A DNA stretch of 64,000 bases from NCBI GenBank assembly GCA_018175075.1, contig GCA_018175075.1_4100.1. The stretch is one strand, 5' to 3'. This document shows positions 39,432-59,156 of this stretch, piece after piece; the stretch's first letter is position 1; each line of letters starts with the position of its first letter. The position numbers and the translations under genes were made by a program. This stretch comes from a phage. Below the pieces are notes generated by a model. It saw only the letters and a program-made list of their open reading frames with translations. It searched no databases and had not been told where the DNA came from.

Positions 39432-39756
39432 GTTTTACATAGAGAGATGAGTTGCCGCAAACAATTCATTCACTCTACTTCCTGTCGTGAGACAGTACAG
39501 AAAGATAGTTCCTCCTATGGGTGGTACATCTTTTAGAACCTCTTTTTTCGTAATATGAACAGTACTGATATTAACAGAATGGTGTCAGTACTGATTTTAA
39601 TTTAATGCATTATGCCACCAGCACAAGCTGGTGGATTCCCTCTAACAGTATTCAGTACTACATGATGGTCTTCATCCTCCTAGGGTAACATAGTGAGGGC
39701 TATGATGGCAGTACTGAATACTCCCTTTCAAAAGATAGATCTATGGTATAGTACTG

Positions 39757-39950
39757 ACGGATTTTGGGCGTAGTTACCCTGGATGGATTTTGGGCGTAGA
39801 TATGTCTAGCCCTCCAGAAGTCTGGAAGTAAAGATGGCTATCCATCTAGACGGCTAAACGGCTAGATTTCTGGATGGCTGGATGGCTAGACGTTTGGACG
39901 GCTAAACGGCTAGATGGTTACACGTCTGGAAGTATAGACGGCTAAATCAA
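39757..39950. repeat. iteron-like short repeat cluster
   Basis: GGATTTTGGGCGTAG twice; at least 7 copies of (A/G)ACGGCTA/GATGGCTA within about 110 bp; TCTGGAAG three times. Confidence 0.55.
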
Positions 39951-40127
39951 AATTTTATTTTGTTTTTTCCAATAGTTCCCCTACCGCGTGGGGATAGTTT
40001 CCCCGCAGTATCTGGTGTTAGATTTTTCTGAATCTGGAATCATTATCTTATAAACTGGGGGCAATGTCAACGGCCTGGACGGATATTTTTAAAAATTTTT
40101 TCAGTACTGAATTTTGGGCGTAACTAT

Positions 40128-40141
40128 GCACCCGGTGGGCT
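40128..40141 (-). repeat. AGCCCACCGGGTGC element, inverted copy
   Basis: GCACCCGGTGGGCT is the reverse complement of the intergenic element found in forward orientation at 49540, 53530, 59062. Confidence 0.45.
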
Positions 40142-40561
40142 GGAGTCTTTCTCGACTTGATGGAACTATTATACAGTACTGGAAAAATAAAGCAATACCC
40201 TGGATGAAAAAAGTTTTAATTAATTTGCTTGCCATCCTGGGCCGGACTATGGTACTATAATTCAGTACTGAGAAAGTGCGTTAACCTGCTAGGGTGCGGG
40301 AGTGTATCCTTTTTTTATATCTTGAATTTTGGGCGTAATTCCGCACCCTCTGGGGTTTCCGCTTTCTCGCGTCTATGTAGTAATTATACGCTTTTTCAGG
40401 ATCAAGTCAATACCTAAAAACAAATAATTGAAAATAATTTAACGCGTTTAAACGGCCCGTAACGCCCTGGAATGATTAGAATGGTGCAAATGTATAGCTT
40501 AGGTGTATTAATGCGTTAGAATGCGTCTGAGGCCGTTTTATGGGGTGTAGTAGTGATTTGG

Positions 40562-40653
40562 TTGATTCAGTACTGAATAATAGTACTCCTATATAGAAAG
40601 ATAGTTCCCCTGGATTGATTCAGTACTGAATAATAGTACTCCTATATAGAAAG
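40562..40653. repeat. 37 bp direct repeat, two copies
   Basis: GATTCAGTACTGAATAATAGTACTCCTATATAGAAAG at 40564-40600 and 40617-40653. Confidence 0.6.
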
Positions 40654-40685
40654 AAAACTATTTTAAAAGTACATGTAGAAAGTAC

Positions 40686-40745
40686 TTGCACCGTACTGAT
40701 AAAAGCGTATAATGTTTTACATCGAGAGCGGGAACACTTCCCGCT
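40686..40745 (+). promoter_or_regulatory. class-I early promoter plus leader hairpin
   Basis: TTGCAC, 16 nt, TATAAT, GTTTTACATC, then AGCGGGAA-CAC-TTCCCGCT. Confidence 0.6.
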
Positions 40746-40768
40746 ACACTTTAAAAGAGATGAAAACG

Positions 40769-41131
40769 ATGGCGACTCAAATCAATAAAATCATGCTTAA
40801 CCTGGTAAACTTCCGCGATGAGATGAAAGGTCTTCCGGCTGAAACTGTAAAAATTCACATTGCAGCTTATCGGGAACTTATTGCAATGTTGCCGCTTAAG
40901 CGTGAACAATACGCCGCTACTTTGATGCTGGATTCAATGATCCATGTAATGATCTCAAATGATTTAACGATGGTTTATCAGTACATGGGAGAAAATTTCG
41001 CGGTGTGTAGTAAGCCAGTACCAGGGATGGCAACTACTGAGGAATTGCACGGTTTAAATTTAAAGCAAGATGCATGGGATAATATGCCTCGTTTCCTGGT
41101 ATGGGCTGACAGTGGCAAAATTTACAAATAA
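40769..41131 (+). CDS. hypothetical protein, 120 aa
   Basis: ATG after leader hairpin with AAAGAG RBS; alternative start 40760; track start 40712 lies in the -10 box. Confidence 0.55.
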   Translation: MATQINKIMLNLVNFRDEMKGLPAETVKIHIAAYRELIAMLPLKREQYAATLMLDSMIHVMISNDLTMVYQYMGENFAVCSKPVPGMATTEELHGLNLKQDAWDNMPRFLVWADSGKIYK

Positions 41132-41145
41132 GTTTAATAAAGTAC

Positions 41146-41202
41146 TTGCAAACTATGTTTAATGGCGTATAATGTTTTACATCAGGTGGGGAATAGTTCC
41201 CC
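41146..41202 (+). promoter_or_regulatory. class-I early promoter plus leader hairpin
   Basis: TTGCAA, 16 nt, TATAAT, then GGGGAA-TAG-TTCCCC. Confidence 0.6.
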
Positions 41203-41224
41203 ACTATATAAGAGGATTAAAAAA

Positions 41225-41464
41225 ATGGCTAAATCAAAAATGTTCTTAGGTCACAAAAACAAAACTCATTGGAATGTAAGCCTGTGGATTAATAACGATG
41301 AGGGATTGTATCGGTTGGCCCTGGATTTTATTAACGACAACACTAATCGCAATGATGCGGCCCGTCATATGATGTTATTTTTAGAACAGACTGGACAAGA
41401 TAAAACACCGGACGGATTCAAATATAGCACTACTGCGATCCGTGCGGCGATGGTTGGAATGTAA
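41225..41464 (+). CDS. hypothetical protein, 79 aa (paralog of 43265 gene)
   Basis: AAGAGGA RBS; shares GHKNKTHWNVSLWINN...PDGFKYSTTAIRAAMVGM. Confidence 0.65.
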   Translation: MAKSKMFLGHKNKTHWNVSLWINNDEGLYRLALDFINDNTNRNDAARHMMLFLEQTGQDKTPDGFKYSTTAIRAAMVGM

Positions 41465-41511
41465 TAGAATAGAATTTATTTAAAGTACTATCGCAAAAAA
41501 TGATAGTACTT

Positions 41512-41517
41512 TATAAT
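41512..41517 (+). promoter_or_regulatory. possible -10 element (weak -35)
   Basis: TATAAT 37 nt upstream of ATG 41555. Confidence 0.3.
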
Positions 41518-41554
41518 AGTGTTTTATTCATACACCAACGATAAGGGCAACAGC

Positions 41555-41818
41555 ATGAATATTAAGTATTTTGCGACGCGTGAACAAGCTCGGATCGCTG
41601 CACGCCAGGACGGGGCAACGTTTAAAGATATGGGCGTACAATCGGAACGTGGTAAACGTTGGGCCATTGTAAAGCGTAGTACCGCCAGATCATTACAGTA
41701 CTGGTTAGCGGCCTTAAAAAGTCCCGATAGTGTATCGCGTCGAGTGGTAGAAATAAAGCTCGACCGAAAGGGCAACCGCGTGACCGTGTACCGTACTAAA
41801 AAGATTGCAGTACTATAA
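41555..41818 (+). CDS. hypothetical protein, 87 aa (paralog of 54831 gene)
   Basis: AAGGG RBS; shares FATREQARIAARQDGA and DRKGNRVTVY. Confidence 0.6.
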   Translation: MNIKYFATREQARIAARQDGATFKDMGVQSERGKRWAIVKRSTARSLQYWLAALKSPDSVSRRVVEIKLDRKGNRVTVYRTKKIAVL

Positions 41819-41826
41819 AAAAGTAC

Positions 41827-41886
41827 TTGCAAACTCTGTTTAATGGCGTATAATGTTTTACATCGAGAGCGGGAACACTTCCCGCC
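41827..41886 (+). promoter_or_regulatory. class-I early promoter plus leader hairpin
   Basis: TTGCAA, 16 nt, TATAAT, then AGCGGGAACACTTCCCGC. Confidence 0.6.
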
Positions 41887-41906
41887 TATAACCTGGAGTA
41901 ATAAAA

Positions 41907-42137
41907 ATGACTAATATGTATATGACTGAAGTTAAAACCGTAAAAGATACTACCACAAATAAAGTTACTTACTTACAGCGGATCTGTGGTGTATGGCAAC
42001 GTATCAGCAAATCAAAGTACTATAAATTAACATCATATGCAAACCGTTCTGATTCATTCAGTACTGAAATAAAAGGTAATAAAGTACACCAATACGGCAC
42101 TTATTATTATTACAGCCTGGACGCGATTGCAGTATAA
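41907..42137 (+). CDS. hypothetical protein, 76 aa
   Basis: ATG with GGAG RBS. Confidence 0.55.
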   Translation: MTNMYMTEVKTVKDTTTNKVTYLQRICGVWQRISKSKYYKLTSYANRSDSFSTEIKGNKVHQYGTYYYYSLDAIAV

Positions 42138-42167
42138 GCAGTTTACAAATCTTTACAATTGCCGGTA

Positions 42168-42196
42168 TTGACTTATTTTGTCAGTACTGGCATAAT
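42168..42196 (+). promoter_or_regulatory. sigma70-like promoter with no ORF downstream
   Basis: TTGACT, 17 nt, CATAAT; downstream is repeat element, not coding. Confidence 0.4.
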
Positions 42197-42219
42197 GTAT
42201 TCATTGGCAGATAAGCCGT

Positions 42220-42247
42220 AGCCCATAGGGTGCGGGAGTGTATCTAT
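42220..42247 (+). repeat. AGCCCA(N)AGGGTGC element, forward copy
   Basis: AGCCCATAGGGTGCGGGAGTGTATCTAT; inverted partner GCACCCGGTGGG at 42279-42290. Confidence 0.45.
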
Positions 42248-42384
42248 AGAAAAATTAGTTTAGTATAGTTACAATTGTGCACCCGGTGGGTTAGCTGTTG
42301 TCATGGGGTATATTATGCCAGTACTGGATAGTGCTGTCAATACTTTTTTAATATTCAGTACTGAAAACTATTTTTAAAAAGTAC

Positions 42385-42412
42385 TTGCAAACTATGTTTA
42401 AAGGCGTATAAT
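42385..42412 (+). promoter_or_regulatory. class-I early promoter driving candidate ncRNA
   Basis: TTGCAA, 16 nt, TATAAT, GTTTTACATC. Confidence 0.55.
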
Positions 42413-42418
42413 GTTTTA

Positions 42419-42502
42419 CATCAGGACGGGGAACGAAATAAGTAACTTCCCGTTAAGTAGCCCAGGAGTAAGGCACACGAAAAACTCCCCTGATAAAATA
42501 GT
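42419..42502 (+). ncRNA. candidate structured RNA, copy 1
   Basis: about 80 nt without ATG; internal hairpin CGGGGAA...TTCCCG and terminal ATCAGG...CCTGAT pairing; near-identical copy at 53635. Confidence 0.4.
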
Positions 42503-42530
42503 TTGACAATTGTTTTTAAAAGCGTATAAT
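42503..42530 (+). promoter_or_regulatory. sigma70-like promoter
   Basis: TTGACA, 16 nt, TATAAT. Confidence 0.55.
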
Positions 42531-42562
42531 ACTTACATCAACTACTGAATGAGGGTTACAAA

Positions 42563-43174
42563 ATGAAAACTATCACTACTACTACTTTCGTTATGGATTT
42601 TTCTGAATTGAACGCAGAACAAAAAACGTCAGCTATCGAACTGGTTCGGGAACGTGAAAAAAACTCAAACGACAATTATTTTTCTGAAAGTGAAATTGAA
42701 TACTATAAAGAAACAGTACTACCGGAATATGGCATTAATGACGCTGAAATACAATTCAGTGGCTTTTGGTCCCAGGGTGACGGTGCATCAATCAGTACTG
42801 ACCACGTTGACGCAGTGAAGTTTTTACGCAAGGTAAGAGCATTAACTAAGTATCGCTCAATCCGTCACCTGCTGAATGAAGATGATTTGGCGATGAGTGT
42901 AAAGCGTTCGCACTCCCACTACTCGCATGAGAATACTGTAAGCGGGTACATTGAATCGGCTTACACTGATTTAACCGCAAAACAAGAAACGTTAGTTAAT
43001 GAGCTTGAGGAACTACTCACTGAAACTATTCGTGAATTGTCCCGCAAGTTGTACCGTGATTTAGAGAATGCATATGAGGATCAATTCACCACTGAAAACA
43101 TTACGGCACTGATTGAGGGTAACGAATATCAATTCAATGTTATTGATGGCGTAGTAGAATCAATCGAATATTAA
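42563..43174 (+). CDS. hypothetical acidic protein, 203 aa
   Basis: GAGGG RBS; acidic; WSQGDGASI and HSHYSHEN motifs. Confidence 0.55.
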   Translation: MKTITTTTFVMDFSELNAEQKTSAIELVREREKNSNDNYFSESEIEYYKETVLPEYGINDAEIQFSGFWSQGDGASISTDHVDAVKFLRKVRALTKYRSIRHLLNEDDLAMSVKRSHSHYSHENTVSGYIESAYTDLTAKQETLVNELEELLTETIRELSRKLYRDLENAYEDQFTTENITALIEGNEYQFNVIDGVVESIEY

Positions 43175-43186
43175 TTTAAAAAGTAC

Positions 43187-43246
43187 TTGCAAACTAAGTT
43201 TAAAAGCGTATAATACTTTATATCGAGGCGGGGAATGGTTCCCCGC
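43187..43246 (+). promoter_or_regulatory. class-I early promoter plus leader hairpin
   Basis: TTGCAA, 16 nt, TATAAT, then GCGGGGAATGGTTCCCCGC. Confidence 0.6.
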
Positions 43247-43264
43247 TCAAACGAGGATTTAAAA

Positions 43265-43504
43265 ATGGCTAGTACTAAAACTTACAACGGTCACAAAAAC
43301 AAAACTCATTGGAATGTAAGCCTTTGGATTAATAACGGTGAGTCATTGTATCGGCTTGCTCAAAGTTGCATCGCACAAAGTAGAACTAAAGATATTGCTG
43401 CGGAATGTATGTACCGCAGATTAAAAGCCAACGGTACTACTACAACGCCGGACGGCTTTAAGTATAGCACTACTGCGATCCGTGCTGCAATGGTTGGAAT
43501 GTAA
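43265..43504 (+). CDS. hypothetical protein, 79 aa (paralog of 41225 gene)
   Basis: GAGGA RBS; conserved C-terminus. Confidence 0.65.
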   Translation: MASTKTYNGHKNKTHWNVSLWINNGESLYRLAQSCIAQSRTKDIAAECMYRRLKANGTTTTPDGFKYSTTAIRAAMVGM

Positions 43505-43517
43505 TATTCAGTACTGA

Positions 43518-43546
43518 GATAATGGCGGGGAATGGTTCCCGCCTTT
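43518..43546 (+). promoter_or_regulatory. degenerate promoter/leader hairpin, may act as terminator
   Basis: GATAAT then GGCGGGGAATGGTTCCCGCC hairpin and TTT. Confidence 0.4.
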
Positions 43547-43561
43547 ACTGAGGGTTATCTA

Positions 43562-43849
43562 ATGAGTAAAGTAATAAAGTACAATGTGTTAAGTAAATCA
43601 TTGTCTATCAGTGAATGCACCGATGGTTTTTGGATGTACGATGAAACGCGTGGCATGAATTTAGCTATGCGTGCAAAAACTGCTGAGGCGGCGTATATTC
43701 AAGCACTGGAATACTACCAGGAACGTTTAAAGGAAGTAGAAGAAGATTATAAAAGCCTCAAAGCGAAAGTAGATCATTTCGTCGGTCAATTCGTGGAAGA
43801 CAACGACGAGGACGGGCACTACTGCGACCGTTGCGGATCTTACAGTTAA
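43562..43849 (+). CDS. hypothetical protein, 95 aa
   Basis: ATG with GAGGG RBS; C-terminal CDRCG. Confidence 0.5.
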   Translation: MSKVIKYNVLSKSLSISECTDGFWMYDETRGMNLAMRAKTAEAAYIQALEYYQERLKEVEEDYKSLKAKVDHFVGQFVEDNDEDGHYCDRCGSYS

Positions 43850-43866
43850 GTACTAAGGATTATATA

Positions 43867-44079
43867 ATGAGTGATTTAATTGAACGTATCAAAGAGCTTG
43901 AAGAAAAAGAATTGCAGTTGATCGGGTTACGGAATAAAGTATTCCATGATTTAGGTGGCTTTATTAATGCCTGGGATAGTGGCGATCCTGATGCGTTACC
44001 TGCTAACCGCCAGGCGATGATCAATGATGTGCGTGGTGTCTTTGAGTATGTTTTAAAAGTACTAGACACTAAGCAATAA
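43867..44079 (+). CDS. hypothetical protein, 70 aa
   Basis: ATG with AAGGA RBS. Confidence 0.5.
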   Translation: MSDLIERIKELEEKELQLIGLRNKVFHDLGGFINAWDSGDPDALPANRQAMINDVRGVFEYVLKVLDTKQ

Positions 44080-44090
44080 AGGCGTATAAT
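44063..44090 (+). promoter_or_regulatory. possible promoter
   Basis: TAGACA, 16 nt, TATAAT overlapping 3' end of upstream gene. Confidence 0.3.
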
Positions 44091-44140
44091 ACTTTATATT
44101 GGTACTGACAAACATTATAAGCGATTCAGGAGCTTTAATC

Positions 44141-44326
44141 ATGACAACATTATCTGAGGTTATCCGCGTTCAAGCTGCAAAGGCTGGAATGACTGTTATC
44201 AATGTAGGGATCAAGATTGAGATCTCCCCTAACGAGTTGCAAGGGATTCCCGATCCTACTAGCTGGGATCGTGCTGGGCGAATGATGCGTAATGCTTCAT
44301 TACTGGACGGTACAAAATTTAATTAA
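44141..44326 (+). CDS. hypothetical protein, 61 aa
   Basis: ATG with AGGAG RBS. Confidence 0.5.
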   Translation: MTTLSEVIRVQAAKAGMTVINVGIKIEISPNELQGIPDPTSWDRAGRMMRNASLLDGTKFN

Positions 44327-44333
44327 AAAGTAC

Positions 44334-44392
44334 TTGCAATTAGTTTTTAGTACTGTATAATGGTTTACATCAAAGGGAGAAATGGTTCTCCC
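44334..44392 (+). promoter_or_regulatory. class-I early promoter plus leader hairpin
   Basis: TTGCAA, 16 nt, TATAAT, then GGGAGAAATGGTTCTCCC. Confidence 0.6.
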
Positions 44393-44411
44393 TGGTAATG
44401 AGGAAAATAAA

Positions 44412-44633
44412 ATGGCTAATATCACTACTCTTTCCCAACTGGAAGCACTGGTTAAATCTATGCGGGAACATGCCGACAAAATCGGCGTACAAGATCCAGC
44501 CGTTTGCTTCTGCGACGAAATGAATGATGATACACTGGTAATAGCAGAAGTCCAGGACGTTTCTAACTATTCCTCGCGTTACACTGGCGGCGTAGCAAAT
44601 AAAGGTGACTTCTGTTTATACCTTACAAAATAA
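44412..44633 (+). CDS. hypothetical protein, 73 aa
   Basis: ATG with GAGGAAA RBS. Confidence 0.55.
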   Translation: MANITTLSQLEALVKSMREHADKIGVQDPAVCFCDEMNDDTLVIAEVQDVSNYSSRYTGGVANKGDFCLYLTK

Positions 44634-44637
44634 CAAC

Positions 44638-44668
44638 GCGGGGAGATAATAACTCCCCGTTACTTTTT
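44638..44668 (+). terminator. rho-independent terminator
   Basis: CGCGGGGAG...CTCCCCG hairpin then TTTTT. Confidence 0.6.
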
Positions 44669-44699
44669 CAGTACTGAATCATTTAATAGACGGATCTCG

Positions 44700-44711
44700 G
44701 CACCCGGTGGG
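44700..44711 (-). repeat. AGCCCACCGGGTGC element, inverted copy
   Basis: GCACCCGGTGGG. Confidence 0.4.
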
Positions 44712-44801
44712 TTAGTGACTGTTTCGTCTTGATGTAGTAATTATGCCAGTACTGGATGCACTTGTCAACAACTATTTTTCAAATACTTTTTATTAAAATA
44801 C

Positions 44802-44856
44802 TTGCAATTAGTTTTTAAACGCGTATAATGTTTTGCATAGGGGGAGCGGTTCCCCT
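44802..44856 (+). promoter_or_regulatory. class-I early promoter plus leader hairpin
   Basis: TTGCAA, 16 nt, TATAAT, then GGGGAGCGGTTCCCC. Confidence 0.6.
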
Positions 44857-44876
44857 GGTAACTAAGGAATAATAAA

Positions 44877-45113
44877 ATGCTTGAACAAATCAAATCAACG
44901 TCTGCGAATGTAACGGGAACGGTAGCACACTTTACTAGTGATGAATCGCGGGGCGTTCCCTATTGTGCTGTACATGTAAACACTGAGGGTAACTACTGGT
45001 TTACGGTTTACGGATCATATTCATTTGGACGGCCTGGACATCAAAAAATTCTGGATAAAGTACAGCCAACGGGTAAAAATATCACTGCTGAAATGTTTTA
45101 TAAAAAATCATAA
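44877..45113 (+). CDS. hypothetical protein, 78 aa
   Basis: ATG with AAGGAA RBS. Confidence 0.55.
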   Translation: MLEQIKSTSANVTGTVAHFTSDESRGVPYCAVHVNTEGNYWFTVYGSYSFGRPGHQKILDKVQPTGKNITAEMFYKKS

Positions 45114-45118
45114 AGTAC

Positions 45119-45178
45119 TTGATAATAGTTTTTAGTACTGTATAATATTTTACATCGCAAGGGGGGAGCGGTTCCCCC
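45119..45178 (+). promoter_or_regulatory. class-I early promoter plus leader hairpin
   Basis: TTGATA, 16 nt, TATAAT, then GGGGGAGCGGTTCCCCC. Confidence 0.55.
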
Positions 45179-45198
45179 TGGTAACTAAGGATAATCAA

Positions 45199-45498
45199 AT
45201 GAAAATTGCAATCATCGCCCTGGCTTTATCTGTTTCCTCTTTCGCTGTTAATGCGTCGTTAGATGTAAGTAGTGAAAAATTCATTCAGTGCACTGTAGCG
45301 ATGACCAATGAAAGTACTGGCGAGATTGTTTTAAAGGATTTAGAGATCCAGCCAGAAGCATTTAAAAACGGGCCGTTCCATGAAGAAGACGAAAAAGGTA
45401 GCACGACAATTTATTACGATGCAAGTACTAAACGCGGTTCGGTCACTGTTATGGATACTGAGAAAGTAACGCATTCCGGCGTTATTAATTGCCGTTGA
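45199..45498 (+). CDS. secreted protein (signal peptide), 99 aa
   Basis: AAGGA RBS; signal peptide ending VNA/S. Confidence 0.55.
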   Translation: MKIAIIALALSVSSFAVNASLDVSSEKFIQCTVAMTNESTGEIVLKDLEIQPEAFKNGPFHEEDEKGSTTIYYDASTKRGSVTVMDTEKVTHSGVINCR

Positions 45499-45519
45499 TA
45501 GATACTACGGGGTAACATC

Positions 45520-45750: not shown

Positions 45751-45756
45751 GTACAT

Positions 45757-45778: not shown

Positions 45779-45832
45779 GTTTTTGTAGTATCGTAGTACT
45801 GAGATACTTTGAAAATAGTTTTAAAAAAATAG

Positions 45833-52827: not shown

Positions 52828-52844
52828 ACTGAGAGGAAAGAAAA

Positions 52845-53057: not shown

Positions 53058-53064
53058 AAAGTAC

Positions 53065-53121
53065 TTGCACAGTACTGAATAAAGTGTATAATGTTTTATA
53101 TCGGAAGGGGAATAGTTCCCC
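53065..53121 (+). promoter_or_regulatory. class-I early promoter plus leader hairpin
   Basis: TTGCAC, 16 nt, TATAAT, then GGGGAATAGTTCCCC. Confidence 0.6.
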
Positions 53122-53143
53122 TCCCAACAAAGAGGAAAGTATA

Positions 53144-53317
53144 ATGATCCAAGTAGAATTATCAGTACTGAAAGATCTGTTTTATCGGTTAGGTACTAAT
53201 GGCGAGTATCCTAAAAGTGATACCGCAAAACTTTTTGTATCACTCGACTTATGGCAACGCGAACAATTAGTAATGTCCTGGCGTAAAGGTAAAGCAGATC
53301 GCGAGGTGAAAGCATGA
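53144..53317 (+). CDS. hypothetical protein, 57 aa
   Basis: ATG with AGAGGAAA RBS; track ORF 53042 extends into the promoter. Confidence 0.5.
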   Translation: MIQVELSVLKDLFYRLGTNGEYPKSDTAKLFVSLDLWQREQLVMSWRKGKADREVKA

Positions 53318-53463
53318 AAGAATTCTTATTCGAAGTAGTGTTTCAAGGTGTCGGTAGTAACCAACTGATTCGATCAAGTGGTTACAATGTCAACCAGGCA
53401 TGGAATAACATTAAACAAATGTACCCGAACGCTATCACCTATCGCAACCCGAAAGAAGTTTAA
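53314..53463 (+). CDS. hypothetical small protein, 49 aa
   Basis: ATGA overlap with upstream stop; followed by terminator. Confidence 0.4.
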   Translation: MKEFLFEVVFQGVGSNQLIRSSGYNVNQAWNNIKQMYPNAITYRNPKEV

Positions 53464-53477
53464 AAATAATTGAAAAA

Positions 53478-53502
53478 GGGATTGACTCCGGTCAGTCCCT
53501 TT
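53478..53502 (+). terminator. rho-independent terminator
   Basis: GGGATTGACTCCGGTCAGTCCC hairpin then TTT. Confidence 0.65.
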
Positions 53503-53529
53503 GCTATTATATACGCATAGAAACAAATC

Positions 53530-53557
53530 AGCCCACCGGGTGCATAAATGTATCTAT
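53530..53557 (+). repeat. AGCCCACCGGGTGC element, forward copy
   Basis: AGCCCACCGGGTGCATAAATGTATCTAT, followed by GCTGGTGG. Confidence 0.45.
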
Positions 53558-53600
53558 TGTTTGCTGGTGGCTAGTACTGAAAACTATTTTAAAAAAGTAC

Positions 53601-53628
53601 TTGCATTGTACTTAGAATAAAGTATAAT
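53601..53628 (+). promoter_or_regulatory. class-I early promoter driving candidate ncRNA
   Basis: TTGCAT, 16 nt, TATAAT, GTTTTACATC. Confidence 0.55.
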
Positions 53629-53634
53629 GTTTTA

Positions 53635-53715
53635 CATCAGGACGGGGAACGAAACAAGTAACCCCGTTAAGTAGTCCAGGAGTAAGACATACGAAAAACT
53701 CCCCTGATAAAATAG
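53635..53715 (+). ncRNA. candidate structured RNA, copy 2
   Basis: near-identical to 42419-42502 with stem changes that keep pairing (CGGGG...CCCCG); no ORF. Confidence 0.4.
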
Positions 53716-53716
53716 T

Positions 53717-53744
53717 TTGACAATAGAAAGTAAACGAGTATAAT
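53717..53744 (+). promoter_or_regulatory. sigma70-like promoter
   Basis: TTGACA, 16 nt, TATAAT. Confidence 0.55.
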
Positions 53745-53777
53745 ACTCACATCAACCACTGATAAGGAAACATAAAA

Positions 53778-54053
53778 ATGCGGATTCTACTGACAGCTAA
53801 CGAAATCGAACAAGTACTGACTACTAACCTGGAAGACTGGAAACGTGAAGCAGATATCCAGGCGGTTCAACAGCTTAACGATGAGTTAACGCCGGATGAC
53901 TTAAGCAAGATTGTAGATCCTCAATTCTACGAAGATATCCACGACACCGCGTTAAGCGTCGAGGATGTACTAGATAAGCACTACATTGATATTGATTTGC
54001 AGGTTTACGGTCGTAAAAACTTTATCACTATTCACGACATTTACAATAATTAA
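53778..54053 (+). CDS. hypothetical acidic protein, 91 aa
   Basis: ATG with AAGGAAA RBS. Confidence 0.55.
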   Translation: MRILLTANEIEQVLTTNLEDWKREADIQAVQQLNDELTPDDLSKIVDPQFYEDIHDTALSVEDVLDKHYIDIDLQVYGRKNFITIHDIYNN

Positions 54054-54056
54054 GTA

Positions 54057-54118
54057 TTGACAAAGTATCTTAGTACTGTATAATAGTTTACATCGAGTGA
54101 GGGGAAACGGTTCCCCTC
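54057..54118 (+). promoter_or_regulatory. early promoter plus leader hairpin (about 90 bp module, copy 1)
   Basis: TTGACA, 16 nt, TATAAT, then GAGGGGAAACGGTTCCCCTC. Confidence 0.6.
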
Positions 54119-54141
54119 CTAACAAAGAGAGAGAAATAAAA

Positions 54142-54324
54142 ATGGCTAAGTGCACTATCTGCAAGAAAGAAATAGTATTAGTTCCAAGTGCCCGTGAACG
54201 TGCCGCTCGGTTCGGTGGCAAAGCGTCAGACTATACAAAAATGTTTACTACCCATGCAGCTTGCCAGGTAGCAAAACGTTCACAAGAAAGCGTAGAATTA
54301 ATGCGTAAACTTTCCAAAAAATAA
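54142..54324 (+). CDS. small Cys-containing protein, 60 aa
   Basis: AGAGAGA RBS; CTIC...HAAC. Confidence 0.5.
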   Translation: MAKCTICKKEIVLVPSARERAARFGGKASDYTKMFTTHAACQVAKRSQESVELMRKLSKK

Positions 54325-54327
54325 GTA

Positions 54328-54388
54328 TTGACAAAGTATCTTAGTACTGTATAATAGTTTACATCAAGTGAGGGGAATGGTTCCCCTC
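54328..54388 (+). promoter_or_regulatory. early promoter plus leader hairpin (module copy 2)
   Basis: TTGACA, 16 nt, TATAAT, then GAGGGGAATGGTTCCCCTC. Confidence 0.6.
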
Positions 54389-54411
54389 CTAACTAAAAGA
54401 GAGAAATAAAA

Positions 54412-54735
54412 ATGGCTATGATCCTTGCCCAGAAAGTAGAATTGAAAATTGTAACCTCATTTGACATTAACGTTAATCGGTGGACTGATTCACACGGCAA
54501 TACTTACCACTCTTGCTACGTGTCTGCGTTAATTGGCGACCGCTGGGAAGACCTGGGACATGAAACCTTTACATACGGTTACGGCACACAAGGCGAATAC
54601 ACGGGCTTGGAGATCATTAAAGAAACCGTTATAGGTTTCAACCCGAAAGAAAAAGTTATTCACCAAATCGAAAAAGAGATTAACAAAGAAATAACAGTTC
54701 GATACAACGATGTAAAACGTAAGAAAGACATGTAA
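54412..54735 (+). CDS. hypothetical protein, 107 aa (paralog of 47590 gene)
   Basis: AGAGAGAAA RBS; conserved motifs. Confidence 0.6.
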   Translation: MAMILAQKVELKIVTSFDINVNRWTDSHGNTYHSCYVSALIGDRWEDLGHETFTYGYGTQGEYTGLEIIKETVIGFNPKEKVIHQIEKEINKEITVRYNDVKRKKDM

Positions 54736-54757
54736 TAGAATCCATTTAAAGTACTAT

Positions 54758-54786
54758 TTGACATTGCCCAGATAGTACTTTATAAT
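54758..54786 (+). promoter_or_regulatory. sigma70-like promoter
   Basis: TTGACA, 17 nt, TATAAT. Confidence 0.55.
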
Positions 54787-54830
54787 AGACTCTAACTTGT
54801 AGTACTAACTTAACTAATAGGATGTATACC

Positions 54831-55226
54831 ATGATTACTAAATTCTACGCTACCCGTGAAGCTGCCCGTATTGTTGCACGCGAGGAAGGAGCAGCATTTA
54901 AAGACATGGGCAAAGATGCACCGAAAGGCCAACGCTGGGCCGTACAGTTCAAAGAGATCTCTGATATTGTGAATTCACCTGAGCCAGTACTAACAGCAGC
55001 AGAACTAAAACGAGCGGATATGCTGGCGGCAATACTTGACGCACAAGATGAGTTTATCGCTGGTTCTGATATCAAAGTACAGGTAAACCACACCGCATGG
55101 ACTCACGCGGATCACCTGGCAAACCTTAAGCGTCCAAGTGAACTGATTCGCAACCAGAAAGAGATCCGACATGATCGTAAGGGTAATCGTGTAACAGTAT
55201 ACAGTAAACGCCGCCAGGTTATCTAA
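54831..55226 (+). CDS. hypothetical protein, 131 aa (paralog of 41555 gene)
   Basis: AGGA RBS; conserved N- and C-terminal blocks. Confidence 0.6.
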   Translation: MITKFYATREAARIVAREEGAAFKDMGKDAPKGQRWAVQFKEISDIVNSPEPVLTAAELKRADMLAAILDAQDEFIAGSDIKVQVNHTAWTHADHLANLKRPSELIRNQKEIRHDRKGNRVTVYSKRRQVI

Positions 55227-55248
55227 TAACTTGCAGTACTAACAACAC

Positions 55249-55273
55249 GGCGGGATCAGTTCCCGCCTTTTTT
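55249..55273 (+). terminator. rho-independent terminator
   Basis: GGCGGGA-TCAGT-TCCCGCC hairpin then TTTTTT. Confidence 0.7.
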
Positions 55274-55287
55274 ATAGGACAAACAAA

Positions 55288-55542
55288 ATGATTAAGGTTC
55301 AACTATATAAAGATAACATCTTACGGGTACACTATAAAGCACCTCAGAGAATCATCACAAAGGCCGTACAGCTTGCTAATGAGTTTATTAATGGTAACCT
55401 ATTACCTAGGAAGTTAAGCAACGGGAAACTGCGTGTAATCGACGTGGACACTAACAACAGGATAGTAATCGAGAACACAGGAAAGATAAACCTTTATGAG
55501 CATCAACAATACAATAAGAAAATAAAACTAATATCACGTTGA
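55288..55542 (+). CDS. hypothetical protein, 84 aa
   Basis: ATG with AGGA RBS. Confidence 0.5.
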   Translation: MIKVQLYKDNILRVHYKAPQRIITKAVQLANEFINGNLLPRKLSNGKLRVIDVDTNNRIVIENTGKINLYEHQQYNKKIKLISR

Positions 55543-55567
55543 CAGTACTCAAATGTTTTAGTACTAT
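55539..55567 (+). promoter_or_regulatory. sigma70-like promoter (module copy 1)
   Basis: TTGACA, 17 nt, TACTAT. Confidence 0.5.
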
Positions 55568-55595
55568 GTACACATACCAACACGGGAGAAACAAA

Positions 55596-55814
55596 ATGAA
55601 ATTATCTAAAATCGAAAAGAAAACTATTGATGAAGCAGTTAAGCACGGTTATACCTTTCGTAATGATTCACATTTTACCAATTTTCAACAAGGGTATCGT
55701 ACTATTAAAAAACTAATTGACAAAGGTTTATTAGTTGAAGTCAATAACGGTAACGGTATCGAGTATCAACCAACACAAGACGCATTTTATTTTAAGAAAT
55801 ATAATATTATCTAA
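55596..55814 (+). CDS. hypothetical protein, 72 aa
   Basis: ATG with GGGAGAAA RBS. Confidence 0.5.
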   Translation: MKLSKIEKKTIDEAVKHGYTFRNDSHFTNFQQGYRTIKKLIDKGLLVEVNNGNGIEYQPTQDAFYFKKYNII

Positions 55815-55843
55815 TTGACAGTACTCAAATGTTTTAGTACTAT
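55815..55843 (+). promoter_or_regulatory. sigma70-like promoter (module copy 2)
   Basis: TTGACA, 17 nt, TACTAT; about 60 bp direct repeat of 55539 module. Confidence 0.5.
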
Positions 55844-55872
55844 ATGTACATACCAACACGGGGAGAAACAAA

Positions 55873-56115
55873 ATGATTACTTTAGAAAAACGTATCAAAG
55901 AAACTACATCGCTGGTGGAACTGTTAACAGTACTGAAATGTAAAACAACACCATTCAGCACGCCGGACTTTATTAATATGGTTGATGTTAATGGTCGCTA
56001 TCGTATCACGGTCGTGAATGGTGCGGCGAAAGTATTCAGTACTAAAAACACTAAGGAAGTGATCCACGCCGTTAATGTTAAAAAAGTAGTTGCCATTGAT
56101 AGTAAAGTACTGTAA
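55873..56115 (+). CDS. hypothetical protein, 80 aa
   Basis: ATG with GGGGAGAAA RBS. Confidence 0.5.
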   Translation: MITLEKRIKETTSLVELLTVLKCKTTPFSTPDFINMVDVNGRYRITVVNGAAKVFSTKNTKEVIHAVNVKKVVAIDSKVL

Positions 56116-56146
56116 GATAGTTTCATTAACTCAAGGAGTAAATGCA

Positions 56147-56731
56147 ATGCGTAATTATACTAAATTCATCCGTACACTGTCAGAAATGGAAACCAACAAA
56201 GAGATCCTTTCAGCTTGTCGGTTAGCTGGCCTGGAGATCATCGGGGCGGGATCTTCCCGTATAGTTTTCGCTTTAAATGATCGGTTAGTGATTAAGGTCG
56301 CGAATTGTGATGCGGGTGTAGAACAAAATGAAACTGAATGTAAGGTATGGAATTTTTTAGACTATGACCGCCCTCAGTTGAAACAGTACTTTGCAAAGGT
56401 GCATATGCATTTATGCGATCCTGATAATATGTTTATCGTTATGGATCGGTTGAGTACTGCAAGCAAAGGCAGTGTGAAGCACGTTAACGCGTGCAATGAA
56501 TTAAAGTACAATATTAAACGTAATGCAATCGAACGCCAGCACCGCTTTGCTGATGCACTACAACACGTTGATGATACATTATCAACACTAACGATAAGAG
56601 ATATCAGAAAACAGAATATCGGCCAGGATCGTAATGGACTTATTAAAGTACTTGATTACGGTTTAACCCGCAATATCTGGAATCAGTACTATAAAAAGCG
56701 TGATGTAGCAGCAAGTAAGGTAACACGATAA
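56147..56731 (+). CDS. putative protein-kinase-like protein, 194 aa
   Basis: AAGGAG RBS; Gly-loop-like IIGAGSSRIV, VIKVA, catalytic-loop-like RDIRKQNIG and LDYG (DFG-like). Confidence 0.5.
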   Translation: MRNYTKFIRTLSEMETNKEILSACRLAGLEIIGAGSSRIVFALNDRLVIKVANCDAGVEQNETECKVWNFLDYDRPQLKQYFAKVHMHLCDPDNMFIVMDRLSTASKGSVKHVNACNELKYNIKRNAIERQHRFADALQHVDDTLSTLTIRDIRKQNIGQDRNGLIKVLDYGLTRNIWNQYYKKRDVAASKVTR

Positions 56732-56746
56732 AAAAGATTAAAAAAG

Positions 56747-56771
56747 GGATTGACTCCGGTCAGTCCCTTTG
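56747..56771 (+). terminator. rho-independent terminator
   Basis: GGGATTGACTCCGGTCAGTCCC hairpin then TTT. Confidence 0.65.
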
Positions 56772-56802
56772 CTATTATATATTCATTGAGAGATAACTCA
56801 CT

Positions 56803-56830
56803 GACCCATAGGGTGCATAAGTGTATCTAT
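56803..56830 (+). repeat. AGCCCA(N)AGGGTGC element, forward copy
   Basis: GACCCATAGGGTGCATAAGTGTATCTAT. Confidence 0.45.
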
Positions 56831-56871
56831 TATATAAGTATTCAGTACTGGAAACTATTTTTAAAAAGTAC

Positions 56872-56931
56872 TTGCATTGTACTTAGAATCAAGTATAATG
56901 TTTTATATCGAGAGGGGGAAATGGTTCTCCC
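56872..56931 (+). promoter_or_regulatory. class-I early promoter plus leader hairpin
   Basis: TTGCAT, 16 nt, TATAAT, then GGGGGAAATGGTTCTCCC. Confidence 0.6.
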
Positions 56932-56953
56932 TGGTACATTAAGGAATAAAATC

Positions 56954-57175
56954 ATGACTACAATGACTTGCATTCACGCTTCAAACCTGCTTAATGATGC
57001 GGCCTTTAATGTTGATTCAGAATATCAATGTTATCGGGATGAAAATAAAAAAGTTTTTGTAGTTGATAATAATGGTTTCCATATTGAATTACAATCCGGC
57101 TTCACTGGTGTTGATGGTAAATCAGTATGGGGCGTACAGGATGATAAAGGTACATATCATTTTAAACGTAATTAA
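56954..57175 (+). CDS. hypothetical protein, 73 aa
   Basis: ATG with AAGGAA RBS; track ORF 56750 runs through terminator and promoter. Confidence 0.55.
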   Translation: MTTMTCIHASNLLNDAAFNVDSEYQCYRDENKKVFVVDNNGFHIELQSGFTGVDGKSVWGVQDDKGTYHFKRN

Positions 57176-57178
57176 GTA

Positions 57179-57237
57179 TTGACAAAGTATATCAGTACTG
57201 TATAATAGTTTACATCAAGGGGAGAATAGTTCTCCCC
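57179..57237 (+). promoter_or_regulatory. early promoter plus leader hairpin
   Basis: TTGACA, 16 nt, TATAAT, then GGGGAGAATAGTTCTCCCC. Confidence 0.6.
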
Positions 57238-57261
57238 ACACCAATAAAAGGAAACAAAATT

Positions 57262-57534
57262 ATGTCCAGCTACTCCGCTACTATGATCATTAAAGATATG
57301 AACGGTAATCCTACTTCTGCTGGTGGATCATTTGGAAACATTAATTTAGATGGTCGGTTATCCATGCAATCAGCCATTGATGCAGCTAAAGAAGTTTTTA
57401 AGAATGAATGTACTGTAAGCAAGCTGGATTATATGGGATTCGCTATCGAGAAAACTAATCGTTTTGTGAACTACAAAAAGCCTATGATGATTGATACTAA
57501 CCTGAAAGCTAACGAAGTGGAATACTTATTATGA
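57262..57534 (+). CDS. hypothetical protein, 90 aa
   Basis: ATG with AAAGGAAA RBS. Confidence 0.55.
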   Translation: MSSYSATMIIKDMNGNPTSAGGSFGNINLDGRLSMQSAIDAAKEVFKNECTVSKLDYMGFAIEKTNRFVNYKKPMMIDTNLKANEVEYLL

Positions 57535-57722
57535 CAGTAGAAGAAGTTAAAAAAGTACTGGCAGTACTACGCTATCATAATCATTGTAAGGTGAAGAATG
57601 ATCCTGATTATCTTGATTCATCCCTGGAGGAAGACACCTTAAACGCGATAAGCTATATGCAAACATTAGCAAAGCGTATGACCGAAAAGAATAGGCCGGA
57701 CTATATAGGAAATAAAATTTAA
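57531..57722 (+). CDS. hypothetical protein, 63 aa
   Basis: ATGA overlap with upstream stop. Confidence 0.5.
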   Translation: MTVEEVKKVLAVLRYHNHCKVKNDPDYLDSSLEEDTLNAISYMQTLAKRMTEKNRPDYIGNKI

Positions 57723-57729
57723 AAAGTAC

Positions 57730-57790
57730 TTGCATTGTAGTTAGATTAACGTATAATGTTTTATATCGAGAGGGGGAAATGGTTTCCCCT
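57730..57790 (+). promoter_or_regulatory. class-I early promoter plus leader hairpin
   Basis: TTGCAT, 16 nt, TATAAT, then GGGGGAAATGGTTTCCCC. Confidence 0.6.
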
Positions 57791-57809
57791 CAAGTCCAGG
57801 AGATACACC

Positions 57810-58073
57810 ATGAACACTATCGAAATCACTATCAATGCACACGTATACGACAACGTAGTACTGCAAACTACTATGACCGCTAATGATACCAGTACTTTGC
57901 GGAATACTGTTATTAGTGCCGTATGTGCTGCAATCGGTGATGTCGCCCTGGAAAATGCAAAACACGTAAACGATGGTTTCACTATGTGCAAACGTGATAA
58001 CGCAAAACATATCATCGTGGAAGGTTACGGCGGTGTAGAATTTAATGTTTATATGAAAAAAGTACTTGCATAA
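57810..58073 (+). CDS. hypothetical protein, 87 aa
   Basis: ATG with AGGAGA RBS; track start 57756 lies in the -10 box. Confidence 0.55.
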   Translation: MNTIEITINAHVYDNVVLQTTMTANDTSTLRNTVISAVCAAIGDVALENAKHVNDGFTMCKRDNAKHIIVEGYGGVEFNVYMKKVLA

Positions 58074-58122
58074 TAACTAAAACAAAGTATAATGTTTTGC
58101 ATAGGGGGAGATATCCTCCCCC
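58066..58122 (+). promoter_or_regulatory. class-I early promoter plus leader hairpin
   Basis: TTGCAT, 16 nt, TATAAT, then GGGGGAGATATCCTCCCCC; -35 overlaps upstream stop. Confidence 0.6.
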
Positions 58123-58140
58123 ACTAAAAGGAGTAATAAA

Positions 58141-58365
58141 ATGGCTAACTTTGATGAACTGATGCGGGAAGTAGCTACCCTGGCAGAAGAGAAGAAATCA
58201 TTCGATTCTATCTATAACACCGCTCACCGTGATTCAGTACTGGCATGTACTCAGGATCAAAAAGATGAACTAATCGCCACCTATCATGAAGCATGGAAGT
58301 ACTACCGCCAATGGGAGAAAGAAGAAAGCGAGTCTACCATCAACGGCATCAATAATCTAATCTAA
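58141..58365 (+). CDS. hypothetical protein, 74 aa
   Basis: ATG with AAGGAG RBS. Confidence 0.55.
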   Translation: MANFDELMREVATLAEEKKSFDSIYNTAHRDSVLACTQDQKDELIATYHEAWKYYRQWEKEESESTINGINNLI

Positions 58366-58384
58366 AAGTTTTATTTCAGTACTA

Positions 58385-58413
58385 TTGACATAGCTTGATA
58401 GTACTGATGTAAT
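58385..58413 (+). promoter_or_regulatory. class-II promoter variant
   Basis: TTGACA, 17 nt, TGTAAT. Confidence 0.45.
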
Positions 58414-58441
58414 AACTTTACTAACTACAAGGGGAAACATC

Positions 58442-58699
58442 ATGGAACAATTCACACAATATCGGGTAAATCCTCAAGCTATGGCCTACGTAGAAGACCA
58501 TAAAACGTTACCAGTACTGCAACCAGTTAAAGGCCATATCTATCGTGGCCTTGCCTGGGATACGGCCCAGGATGGATATAAAACCGTCGCAGTGGGGATG
58601 TATTGCGGGAATGGTGAATGGTTTGATCCTAACAATCCGATTGCACTTGACAGTACTGAAAAAATGAAATGGGCCGACTACATCGAAGATATTTCATAA
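58442..58699 (+). CDS. hypothetical protein, 85 aa
   Basis: ATG with AAGGGGAAA RBS. Confidence 0.55.
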   Translation: MEQFTQYRVNPQAMAYVEDHKTLPVLQPVKGHIYRGLAWDTAQDGYKTVAVGMYCGNGEWFDPNNPIALDSTEKMKWADYIEDIS

Positions 58700-58706
58700 A
58701 AACTAT

Positions 58707-58767
58707 TTGACAGTACTAACCAGTAATGTATAATGTTTTACATAGAGCGGGGGAATAGTTCTCCCGC
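58707..58767 (+). promoter_or_regulatory. early promoter plus leader hairpin
   Basis: TTGACA, 16 nt, TATAAT, then GCGGGGGAATAGTTCTCCCGC. Confidence 0.6.
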
Positions 58768-58789
58768 CAATAGTTTGGAGTAAAACATT

Positions 58790-58990
58790 ATGTCTATCGC
58801 TATCGCCCTGGTTGAAGTACTGAAAGAAGCTAAAGCCAACCTTATCGATGTACAGATTAAGGAATTGCAAAACGGCTTAATCGGCTGTACTTGTACCGCT
58901 GGCGGTGCGGCAGACTATCGAGAACACGAATCACTCGAATCACTGGTTCGGTATCTTACCATGATCGTTGATGATTGGAGAATCATCTAA
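58790..58990 (+). CDS. hypothetical protein, 66 aa
   Basis: ATG with GGAG RBS. Confidence 0.55.
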   Translation: MSIAIALVEVLKEAKANLIDVQIKELQNGLIGCTCTAGGAADYREHESLESLVRYLTMIVDDWRII

Positions 58991-59009
58991 CAAAAAAAGA
59001 ATAAAAAAA

Positions 59010-59034
59010 GGGATTGACTCCGGTCAGTCCCTTT
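59010..59034 (+). terminator. rho-independent terminator
   Basis: GGGATTGACTCCGGTCAGTCCC hairpin then TTT. Confidence 0.65.
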
Positions 59035-59061
59035 GCTATTATATACGCATAGACAAAAACT

Positions 59062-59087
59062 AGCCCACAGGGTGCATAAGTGTATCC
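59062..59087 (+). repeat. AGCCCACAGGGTGC element, forward copy
   Basis: AGCCCACAGGGTGCATAAGTGTATCC, followed by GCTGGTGG at 59122. Confidence 0.45.
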
Positions 59088-59156
59088 AAAATATATAGTT
59101 AATAACGGTGAGTAACTATCTGCTGGTGGAGTGAAAACTATTAATAAAAAAAAGTA

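Follow-up and report, generated by a model that had tools for sequence, protein, structure and literature searches.

We analysed a 64,000-nucleotide stretch of phage DNA (contig GCA_018175075.1_4100.1 of GenBank assembly GCA_018175075.1; called the window throughout) and found that the octamer GCTGGTGG, the Chi sequence of its Escherichia coli host, is clustered at 39.6–59.1 kb. The interval occupied by the cluster (39615–59129) lies wholly within the direct terminal repeat (DTR) of an Asteriusvirus genome and covers almost all of it. The cluster coincides with the repeat, is specific to the exact octamer, favours the strand that terminates 3′ at the right genome end, and is found in three phage genera. 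We consider it probable from these comparisons that the octamers are true Chi sites of the host, which selection has built up within the ~21-kb repeat and which act through a RecBCD/RecA mechanism. The pattern suggests that the phage uses a host RecBCD signal to save and recombine its DNA ends.

The window has a G+C content of about 35% and contains no tRNA genes. Its identity of 95–98% to 121Q, PBECO4, G17, fEgEco12 and CRJP21 places it in the genus Asteriusvirus, the 121Q/PBECO4-like jumbo phages of E. coli. We compared it with a colinear relative, the complete genome of vB_EcoM_CRJP21 (366,301 bp), in which a perfect repeat of 20,152 bp (1–20152 identical to 346150–366301) forms the DTR. 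The first and last bases of this repeat align to window positions 39039 and 60492, which correspond to the physical left and right genome ends, respectively. Because these positions match the CRJP21 repeat ends and carry motifs common to five Asteriusvirus DTRs, the window contains one collapsed copy of the repeat; it has the form of a concatemer junction, with the collapsed repeat between the unique sequences that adjoin either genome end. The shared motifs, AGTAGGCAGAGGAAGTCTGCC at the start and GGGCGGGTAACCT at the end, are identical in the five repeats (the window, CRJP21, fEgEco12, vB_Ec-M-J and G17), whose lengths range from 20.2 to 21.5 kb. The left motif (39039–39059) includes a hairpin, GGCAGA-GGAAG-TCTGCC, at bases 5–21, and the right motif occupies 60480–60492. 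Published repeats are of 20,993 bp for fEgEco12, with termini located by PhageTerm and restriction digests (PMC13070987), about 20 kb for G17 from sequencing coverage (PMC6563267), and 20,668 bp for Sharanji by PhageTerm (PMC11895373), the last being the length that we derived for the G17 repeat. The DTR holds about 50 small genes, all on the plus strand, and about 33 sigma70-like promoters.

Chi occurs 15 times in the window, counting both strands, versus 0.69 copies expected from dinucleotide shuffles; the maximum in any of 100 dinucleotide-preserving shuffles was five. Ten copies are on the plus strand and five on the minus strand (Table 1), and the octamer is the most over-represented in the window after the AGTACT family. 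Within the repeat, five of the nine plus-strand copies are intergenic (39627, 46595, 50854, 53563 and 59122), while the other four lie in open reading frames (ORFs) with ribosome-binding sites. Both minus-strand copies in the repeat are intergenic as well, so that 7 of the 11 fall in the non-coding ~39% of the DTR. The first-pass annotation had proposed a plus-strand enrichment here of seven copies, six of them intergenic, against roughly one by chance. The enrichment is confirmed and exceeds that proposal. All seven positions were exact, but two further copies (52315 and 55911) had been overlooked; the intergenic number was over-counted, since 51364, 52315, 55911 and 57319 are in ORFs; and the chance expectation was too high, Markov models of order 0 to order 4 fitted to the CRJP21 repeat giving 0.1–0.3 copies per strand per 20-kb DTR. 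The two strands are not equally frequent in the cluster (nine plus versus two minus) and the host is an enterobacterium, E. coli, so that both refutations named in the first-pass annotation, equal strand frequencies and a non-enterobacterial host, fall away. Comparative sequence evidence also supports, and makes more precise, the proposal that Chi sites sharing one orientation might shield the linear DNA of the phage, with a presumed dependence on RecBCD.

The enrichment is confined to the repeat and recurs in other phages. In CRJP21, the 20.2-kb DTR carries nine plus-strand and two minus-strand copies, versus order-0 expectations of 0.11 and 0.08, and the other 326 kb carry nine and five; Chi is thus about 13 times as dense in the repeat as elsewhere in that genome (Poisson P = 2e-9). 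The remaining Asteriusvirus repeats hold similar sets: ten plus and two minus in fEgEco12 (21.0 kb), nine and two in vB_Ec-M-J (21.5 kb), and nine and one in G17 (20.7 kb). The repeat of fENko-Kae01, a phage of Klebsiella aerogenes (19.7 kb), has 12 plus and two minus copies, versus one and one in the next 30 kb, and that of the Pectobacterium phage CBB (Mimasvirus; 22.5 kb) has seven and two, versus two and one in the next 27.5 kb; for these two phages, the background is the sequence adjoining the repeat rather than the whole genome. fENko-Kae01 belongs to a different genus cluster, with ~29% average nucleotide identity to fEgEco12 (Table 2 of PMC13070987). Its repeat was mapped by PhageTerm and is annotated in its record, as is the terminal repeat of CBB. 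All three genera infect Enterobacterales (E. coli, Klebsiella aerogenes and Pectobacterium), and the same Chi octamer is common to enteric bacteria (PMC12315714). The sites therefore combine the exact octamer, enterobacterial hosts and a 3′-side encounter for RecBCD entering at a duplex end, and they are both over-represented and concentrated at the genome ends in an orientation that matches RecBCD entry.

An enrichment of this kind might arise as a by-product, without any selection for the octamer, from base composition, from codon usage or from repeated cassettes of hairpins, terminators or promoters. Several features lean that way: the DTR has a higher GC fraction (0.383 versus 0.338 in CRJP21) and a G>C skew; the plus-strand copies at 39627 and 50854 are hairpin arms; a terminator family, AGCCCACC..GGTGGGCT, overlaps 6–7 nt of Chi; and three of the four coding copies in the repeat, together with all four copies outside it, are read in frame as GCT-GGT-GGN (Ala-Gly-Gly). 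However, Markov models up to order 4 give at most 0.35 plus-strand copies per DTR. Among the 168 permutations of the same composition (G5C1T2; Chi and 167 others), Chi occurs 9, 12 and 7 times in the three DTRs, compared to a mean of 0.13–0.26 for the other 167. One-mismatch neighbours are nearly absent, with 3–6 copies per DTR for all 24 variants combined, compared to 9–12 plus-strand copies of exact Chi. In the 326-kb unique region of CRJP21, Chi only ties with the permutation GGTGCTGG, a count that is ordinary Gly/Ala codon noise. Moreover, the pattern recurs in the DTRs of two other genera without flanking similarity. The Markov, one-mismatch and permutation controls, together with the octamer scan described below, largely refute the by-product explanation, which we regard as very improbable.

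We scanned all 65,536 octamers for words present at least four times on the DTR plus strand in all three genera. Ranked by the minimal observed/expected ratio, Chi comes first (59-fold), tied with CAGTACTG, and all the remaining words belong to the AGTACT or promoter −35 families. By absolute count, Chi is not the commonest octamer, the AGTACT family being more frequent. That family dominates the over-represented octamers of the window: its palindrome CAGTACTG has 64 copies in 64 kb (~0.7 expected per strand; for example at 38953–40640 and 53571–53578) and is equally abundant in the fENko-Kae01 and CBB repeats (13–38 copies each). It is partly promoter-linked (AAAGTAC-TTGCAA and AGTACTG-TATAAT) and is also found elsewhere. 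Around the 28 plus-strand Chi of the three genera, the only flanking preferences were weak ones, for T at −1 and for A at +1, and no extended motif emerged.

The nine plus-strand Chi of the repeat stand in varied contexts: one arm of a palindrome, one intergenic copy with a distant inverted partner (46595), one arm of a terminator-like hairpin, two spacers between a terminator and a promoter, three Ala-Gly-Gly triplets and one Leu-Val reading. Several of the fENko-Kae01 copies fall inside promoters, in the gap from the −35 to the −10 hexamer. Such a scatter over every kind of tolerant position would be expected under selection on the octamer itself. The first-pass annotation had offered hairpin stems as an alternative explanation, and this applies to two of the nine sites, those in the palindrome at 39615–39634 and in the hairpin at 50840–50864; we rejected it, along with terminator stems, for the other seven. 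There is no significant structure at 53563 or 59122, and the long-range pairing between 46533 and 46595 is not significant (z = −1.35).

At the left end of the cluster, two Chi of opposite strands form a palindrome, of which RecBCD would read the minus-strand arm from the left end and the plus-strand arm from the right. Its fold is a hairpin with a perfect stem of 8 bp (−15.7 kcal/mol) that lacks a U-tail. In the five Asteriusviruses, its arms are invariant and its loop is ACAA or TTGT; fENko-Kae01 has the same double-Chi palindrome 484–503 bp from its left end, with a TTAA loop and unrelated flanks. A scan of IMG/VR for CCACCAGC-N4-GCTGGTGG returned 46 contigs, among which 121Q was the sole jumbo genome. 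The matches are scattered and mostly high-GC, and therefore the double-Chi palindrome alone is not diagnostic. The hairpin at 50840–50864, AGCCCACUGGU-UAAC-GCUGGUGGGCU, folds at −19.1 kcal/mol (z = −3.9). Because its 5′ arm, CCACUGGU, pairs with the Chi arm via three G.U wobble pairs, the hairpin is preserved in the RNA and Chi is present there on the plus strand only. The hairpin core, CACTGGTTAACGCTGGTGG, recurs at 19354 in fENko-Kae01 (region ~19340–19365), a phage of a different genus.

Table 1. Direct terminal repeat and Chi sites of the window (positions in the window; conservation refers to the five Asteriusvirus genomes).
Feature	Position	Strand	Context and conservation
DTR, one collapsed copy, ~21.45 kb	39039..60492	+	From the CRJP21 alignment; termini mapped in relatives
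Chi outside the DTR	13407..13414	+	In-frame Ala-Gly-Gly; not in cluster
Three Chi outside the DTR (27458, 27716, 27971)	27458..27978	-	In-frame Ala-Gly-Gly, all in one ORF
Palindromic double Chi, CCACCAGC-ACAA-GCTGGTGG	39615..39634	both	576 bp from left terminus; minus arm 39615-39622, plus arm 39627-39634
Chi, left-end-active	46533..46540	-	Intergenic; kept in 4/5, G17 has CCACTAGC
Chi	46595..46602	+	Intergenic, ~70 nt upstream of an early promoter; invariant 5/5
Chi, 3′ arm of terminator-like hairpin	50854..50861	+	Invariant 5/5
Chi	51364..51371	+	In-frame Ala-Gly-Gly in 48-aa ORF 51319-51465 (g643 in the fEgEco12 annotation)
Chi	52315..52322	+	In-frame Ala-Gly-Gly in 62-64-aa ORF; invariant 5/5
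Chi	53563..53570	+	Terminator-to-promoter spacer, ~30 nt upstream of −35 element; invariant 5/5
Chi	55911..55918	+	In 80-aa ORF 55873-56115, read xxG-CTG-GTG-Gxx (Leu-Val); invariant 5/5
Chi	57319..57326	+	In-frame Ala-Gly-Gly in 90-aa ORF 57262-57534; invariant 5/5
Decayed Chi, GCTGGCGG	58898..58905	+	Synonymous GGT to GGC; orthologue intact in the four other Asteriusviruses
Chi nearest right terminus	59122..59129	+	Terminator-to-promoter spacer, 1,363 bp from the terminus; invariant 5/5

Some sites vary among the Asteriusviruses. The copy at 51364 is limited to the window and fEgEco12, and vB_Ec-M-J has GCTGATGG in its place. The decay at 58898, in this phage alone, shows turnover of individual Chi sites.

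Promoters are dense in this part of the window. About 33 near-identical, strong sigma70-like promoters lie on the plus strand at 39404–59606, and almost every small DTR gene has its own. The cassette reads AAAAAGTAC-TTGCAA-N17-GCGTATAAT-GTTTTACATC or, with its variants included, AAAAAGTAC-TTGCAA/TTGACA-N16-17-(GCG)TATAAT-GTTTTACATC, and is followed by a GGGGAG ribosome-binding site; such a promoter-dense repeat is typical of an early region transcribed by the host RNA polymerase. We considered whether Chi could be part of this early-promoter cassette and rejected it, as Chi lies within 110 nt upstream of only 2–3 of the ~33 promoters. The promoters at 49609 and 56872 have upstream spacers paralogous to the one at 53563, and these show ATATAAGTATT where that spacer has GTTTGCTGGTGG; therefore Chi is not a component of the cassette.

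The strand on which RecBCD recognises Chi is the one whose 3′ end lies where the enzyme enters (PMC12315714; bioRxiv 10.1101/2021.07.08.451572). By this orientation rule, plus-strand Chi would act on enzyme coming from the right terminus and minus-strand Chi on enzyme coming from the left. In each of the five Asteriusviruses, the right-active Chi closest to the right end is 1,361–1,363 bp away from it, and in fENko-Kae01 ~0.4 kb away; on the other side, the closest left-active copy is the palindrome's minus arm (576 bp from the left end, or 484 bp in fENko-Kae01). In the window's repeat, two Chi are left-active, at distances of 0.58 and 7.5 kb from that terminus. With the three genera taken together, the plus-to-minus ratio is 28:6 (P = 2e-4 against 50:50, 0.005 against 60:40), and 20 of the 28 plus-strand copies are in the right half of the DTR (P = 0.036).

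We propose a mechanism whereby RecBCD would enter the right end after injection, or at any replication intermediate that ends in the DTR, and would then meet nine Chi in the proper orientation over 21 kb, starting with one at 1.36 kb. The commonly quoted recognition is 30–40% per Chi. At this efficiency, nine sites would leave 1–4% of the enzymes unarrested and two sites 36–49%; because fewer than 5% of the enzymes would pass all nine, degradation would be arrested within the repeat. Beyond the encounter of RecBCD with Chi, the steps are ones that we infer. RecA would be loaded on a 3′ tail made of DTR sequence, and the RecA-coated tail could invade the identical left DTR, either circularising the genome or priming recombination-dependent replication into concatemers. 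The two left-active minus-strand Chi may help to keep the recipient repeat intact. Because it acts in cis, the Chi array would work before any phage protein is made. For T5, the first-entering DNA end is exposed ahead of any phage protein (bioRxiv 10.1101/866236), and such exposure before phage proteins exist would favour a cis-acting solution. The authors of the Sharanji study report no nucleus-like compartment in these phages (PMC11895373), and the phage DNA would therefore be accessible to RecBCD.

Several points weigh against this proposal. RecBCD dependence, Chi-dependent cutting and end protection are all things that we infer from sequence. Relatives are annotated with a RecA/UvsX-like recombinase, an SbcCD-like nuclease and endonuclease VII (also in PMC11895373), and because they encode recombination proteins of their own, it is not evident that these phages depend on recombination by the host. 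The repeat also has many other repeated elements and an unusual composition. Its G>C skew predicts part of the plus-strand bias, and the pooled orientation ratio has P = 0.08 against 70:30. A ratio of 9:2 gives the left end comparatively poor coverage, and it is only through a model that this asymmetry can be explained. Within the genus, site conservation is marginally above background, with 9 of 11 sites invariant versus 53% expected (P = 0.05). We rejected this conservation as evidence of purifying selection, the test being underpowered because the genomes are 95–97% identical. Individual sites also appear dispensable, because 58898 has decayed here and 51364 is variably present.

The octamer could instead be a signal unrelated to RecBCD, such as a motif of early sense RNA or a protein site for transcription, packaging or DTR processing, with its identity to Chi a coincidence. 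All DTR genes are on the plus strand, placing plus-strand Chi in the sense RNA; the repeat is full of other conserved cis-elements, including the promoter cassettes, the AGTACT family and iteron-like arrays; and the copies at 53563 and 59122 are similarly placed upstream of promoters. Yet the unbiased scan in three genera put the octamer of the host's own Chi joint first, and its flanks and its positions relative to genes, promoters and terminators are heterogeneous, including the fENko-Kae01 copies between −35 and −10 hexamers. Minus-strand copies near the left end are, in addition, oriented for RecBCD entering there. We therefore judge a coincidental identity to be quite unlikely. Another explanation keeps RecBCD as the agent and changes the benefit. 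Chi limits RecBCD-dependent spacer acquisition in E. coli, and arrest of RecBCD near the ends would leave fewer DNA fragments for the adaptation machinery, so that the main gain would be reduced CRISPR spacer acquisition, or reduced input to other RecBCD-fed defences, rather than recombination. This predicts the same terminal location, orientation and octamer specificity, and the sequence, compatible with both, does not separate it from recombination and protection. Adaptation may nevertheless matter little in a lytic infection, and a need for repeat-to-repeat homology would account at least as well for a Chi gradient directed to one end and for a cluster limited to the repeat. We consider it unlikely that defence evasion is the main benefit.

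Known systems offer close parallels to recombination between the repeats. Chi protects linear DNA in E. coli, as seen with rolling-circle plasmids and linear substrates, by attenuating exonuclease V and loading RecA. The phage cluster has the same cis-acting octamer and orientation rule, but those substrates are engineered, whereas the cluster is natural and kept in three genera. In phage P1 and its relatives P7 and D6, a Chi-dense terminal redundancy is circularised by RecBCD and RecA (Subramaniam & Smith; bioRxiv 10.1101/2021.07.08.451572, Adv Genet 2022). P1 has ~50 Chi around its terminal redundancy, and its growth needs RecBCD, RecA and Chi recognition (bioRxiv 10.1101/2021.07.08.451572). 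Like P1, the Asteriusviruses have linear virion DNA with direct terminal repeats and Chi that are over-represented near the DNA ends without being tied to coding sequence, and the role proposed for both is Chi-stimulated RecBCD–RecA recombination between the repeats. The two differ in their life cycle and ends: P1 is temperate and packages by headful from pac, with ends that vary over 20–40 kb, while the phage here is virulent, ~370 kb long and has fixed ends. Chi in P1 are numerous on each of the two strands (31 of 50 on the top strand), compared to one exact 21-kb repeat here in which ~80% are co-oriented. RecBCD dependence was shown experimentally in P1, whereas here it is predicted from sequence.

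A second parallel is with lambdoid phages that have no recombination module and a high Chi content, such as LLS, OS31 and Pseudomonas MD8 (PMC12315714, Genome Res 2025). As in LLS, where 20 of 23 are oriented for RecBCD entry from the right, Chi here share an orientation, are concentrated on the right side of the genome and would be read by RecBCD entering at that end; the density is similar, with a site about every 1.9 kb in LLS and every ~2 kb in the DTR. Phages of the LLS type are, however, temperate cos phages of ~30–60 kb that lack a recombination module, and RecBCD was shown to improve the growth of LLS. The jumbo phages differ in having RecA/UvsX-like and SbcCD-like proteins, DTR ends, and a cluster that stops exactly at the repeat boundary. 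Because a recombinase, recombination endonuclease subunits and endonuclease VII are annotated in relatives, the jumbo phage falls outside the class without a recombination module; its Chi may work in a similar way early in infection despite its own recombinase.

Phages with free ends must evade RecBCD, as has been discussed for T5 (bioRxiv 10.1101/866236). T4 gp2, Mu Gam, lambda Gam and T7 gp5.9 solve the same problem in trans with proteins. Unlike these proteins, a Chi cluster would operate in cis, independently of gene expression and with RecBCD still working. A tblastn search of CRJP21 with lambda Gam and T7 gp5.9 gave no hit below E = 1, a weak negative that is uninformative for remote homologues. 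In the first 50 kb of T5 (NC_005859), we observed two Chi, at 8127 and 8689, both on the plus strand inside the 10.2-kb left terminal repeat, where 0.06 are expected; there are none in the next 40 kb. Their orientation follows the logic seen in the jumbo phages, and with n = 2 the observation is suggestive. We found no prior report on Chi or RecBCD in jumbo phages in the fEgEco12, fENko-Kae01, Sharanji and G17 papers or in a 2026 review, a survey that left subscription journals largely uncovered. Within similarly incomplete literature coverage, the sole match that combined Asteriusvirus and RecBCD merely lists a RecD-like gene.

The cluster raises a stronger and more tentative possibility, to which we give less than even weight: in Asteriusvirus, the fENko-Kae01 group and Mimasvirus, RecBCD might be a required pro-viral factor and not a threat, with the Chi array starting repeat-to-repeat invasion before gene expression and, as a corollary, serving as a stealth alternative to inhibitors. 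If so, circularisation and recombination-dependent replication of a 350-kb genome would be initiated by a host repair enzyme. Some defences, retron-type guards among them, respond to antagonism of RecBCD. By working in cis, the Chi array would not set off systems of this kind, for example Gabija (PMC12407980). For T5, survival of RecBCD and the conversion from linear to replicating DNA are listed as unresolved (bioRxiv 10.1101/866236), and a repeat-confined Chi array would be a concrete and easily tested hypothesis for how virulent phages with fixed repeats survive RecBCD. It would also extend a recent proposal, phage selection for Chi in P1 and some lambdoids, to virulent jumbo phages with their own recombinases. 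In practice, the co-oriented cluster could mark the DTR and the genome orientation in Asteriusvirus-like records that have arbitrary start points, and the mechanism would be relevant to the host range and defence evasion of such phages, which are under development for therapy.

Other features of the window lie beside the cluster or outside it. A 1.5-kb non-coding stretch (38765–40229) holds the DTR boundary, the Chi palindrome and an iteron-like array of ~16 tandem 8-bp units (39816–39943; consensus NGAYGGCT), ~0.8 kb from the left terminus, which may be a packaging or replication element. The three minus-strand Chi at 27458–27978 are a coding by-product: they are in frame in a Gly-rich ORF of 245 aa on the minus strand (27400–28137; GGGNGGNAGVSGG..., GAGGGGGGG). 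This ORF sits in a block at ~22.6–28.1 kb that does not align to CRJP21, and it is surrounded by an array of minus-strand paralogues of ~400 aa at 20–34 kb. Adjoining the non-coding stretch, about 22 tightly packed plus-strand ORFs of 60–70 aa occupy 34374–38765, with a GC skew of −0.19 and a positive AT skew, opposite to the skew of the other plus-strand gene blocks.

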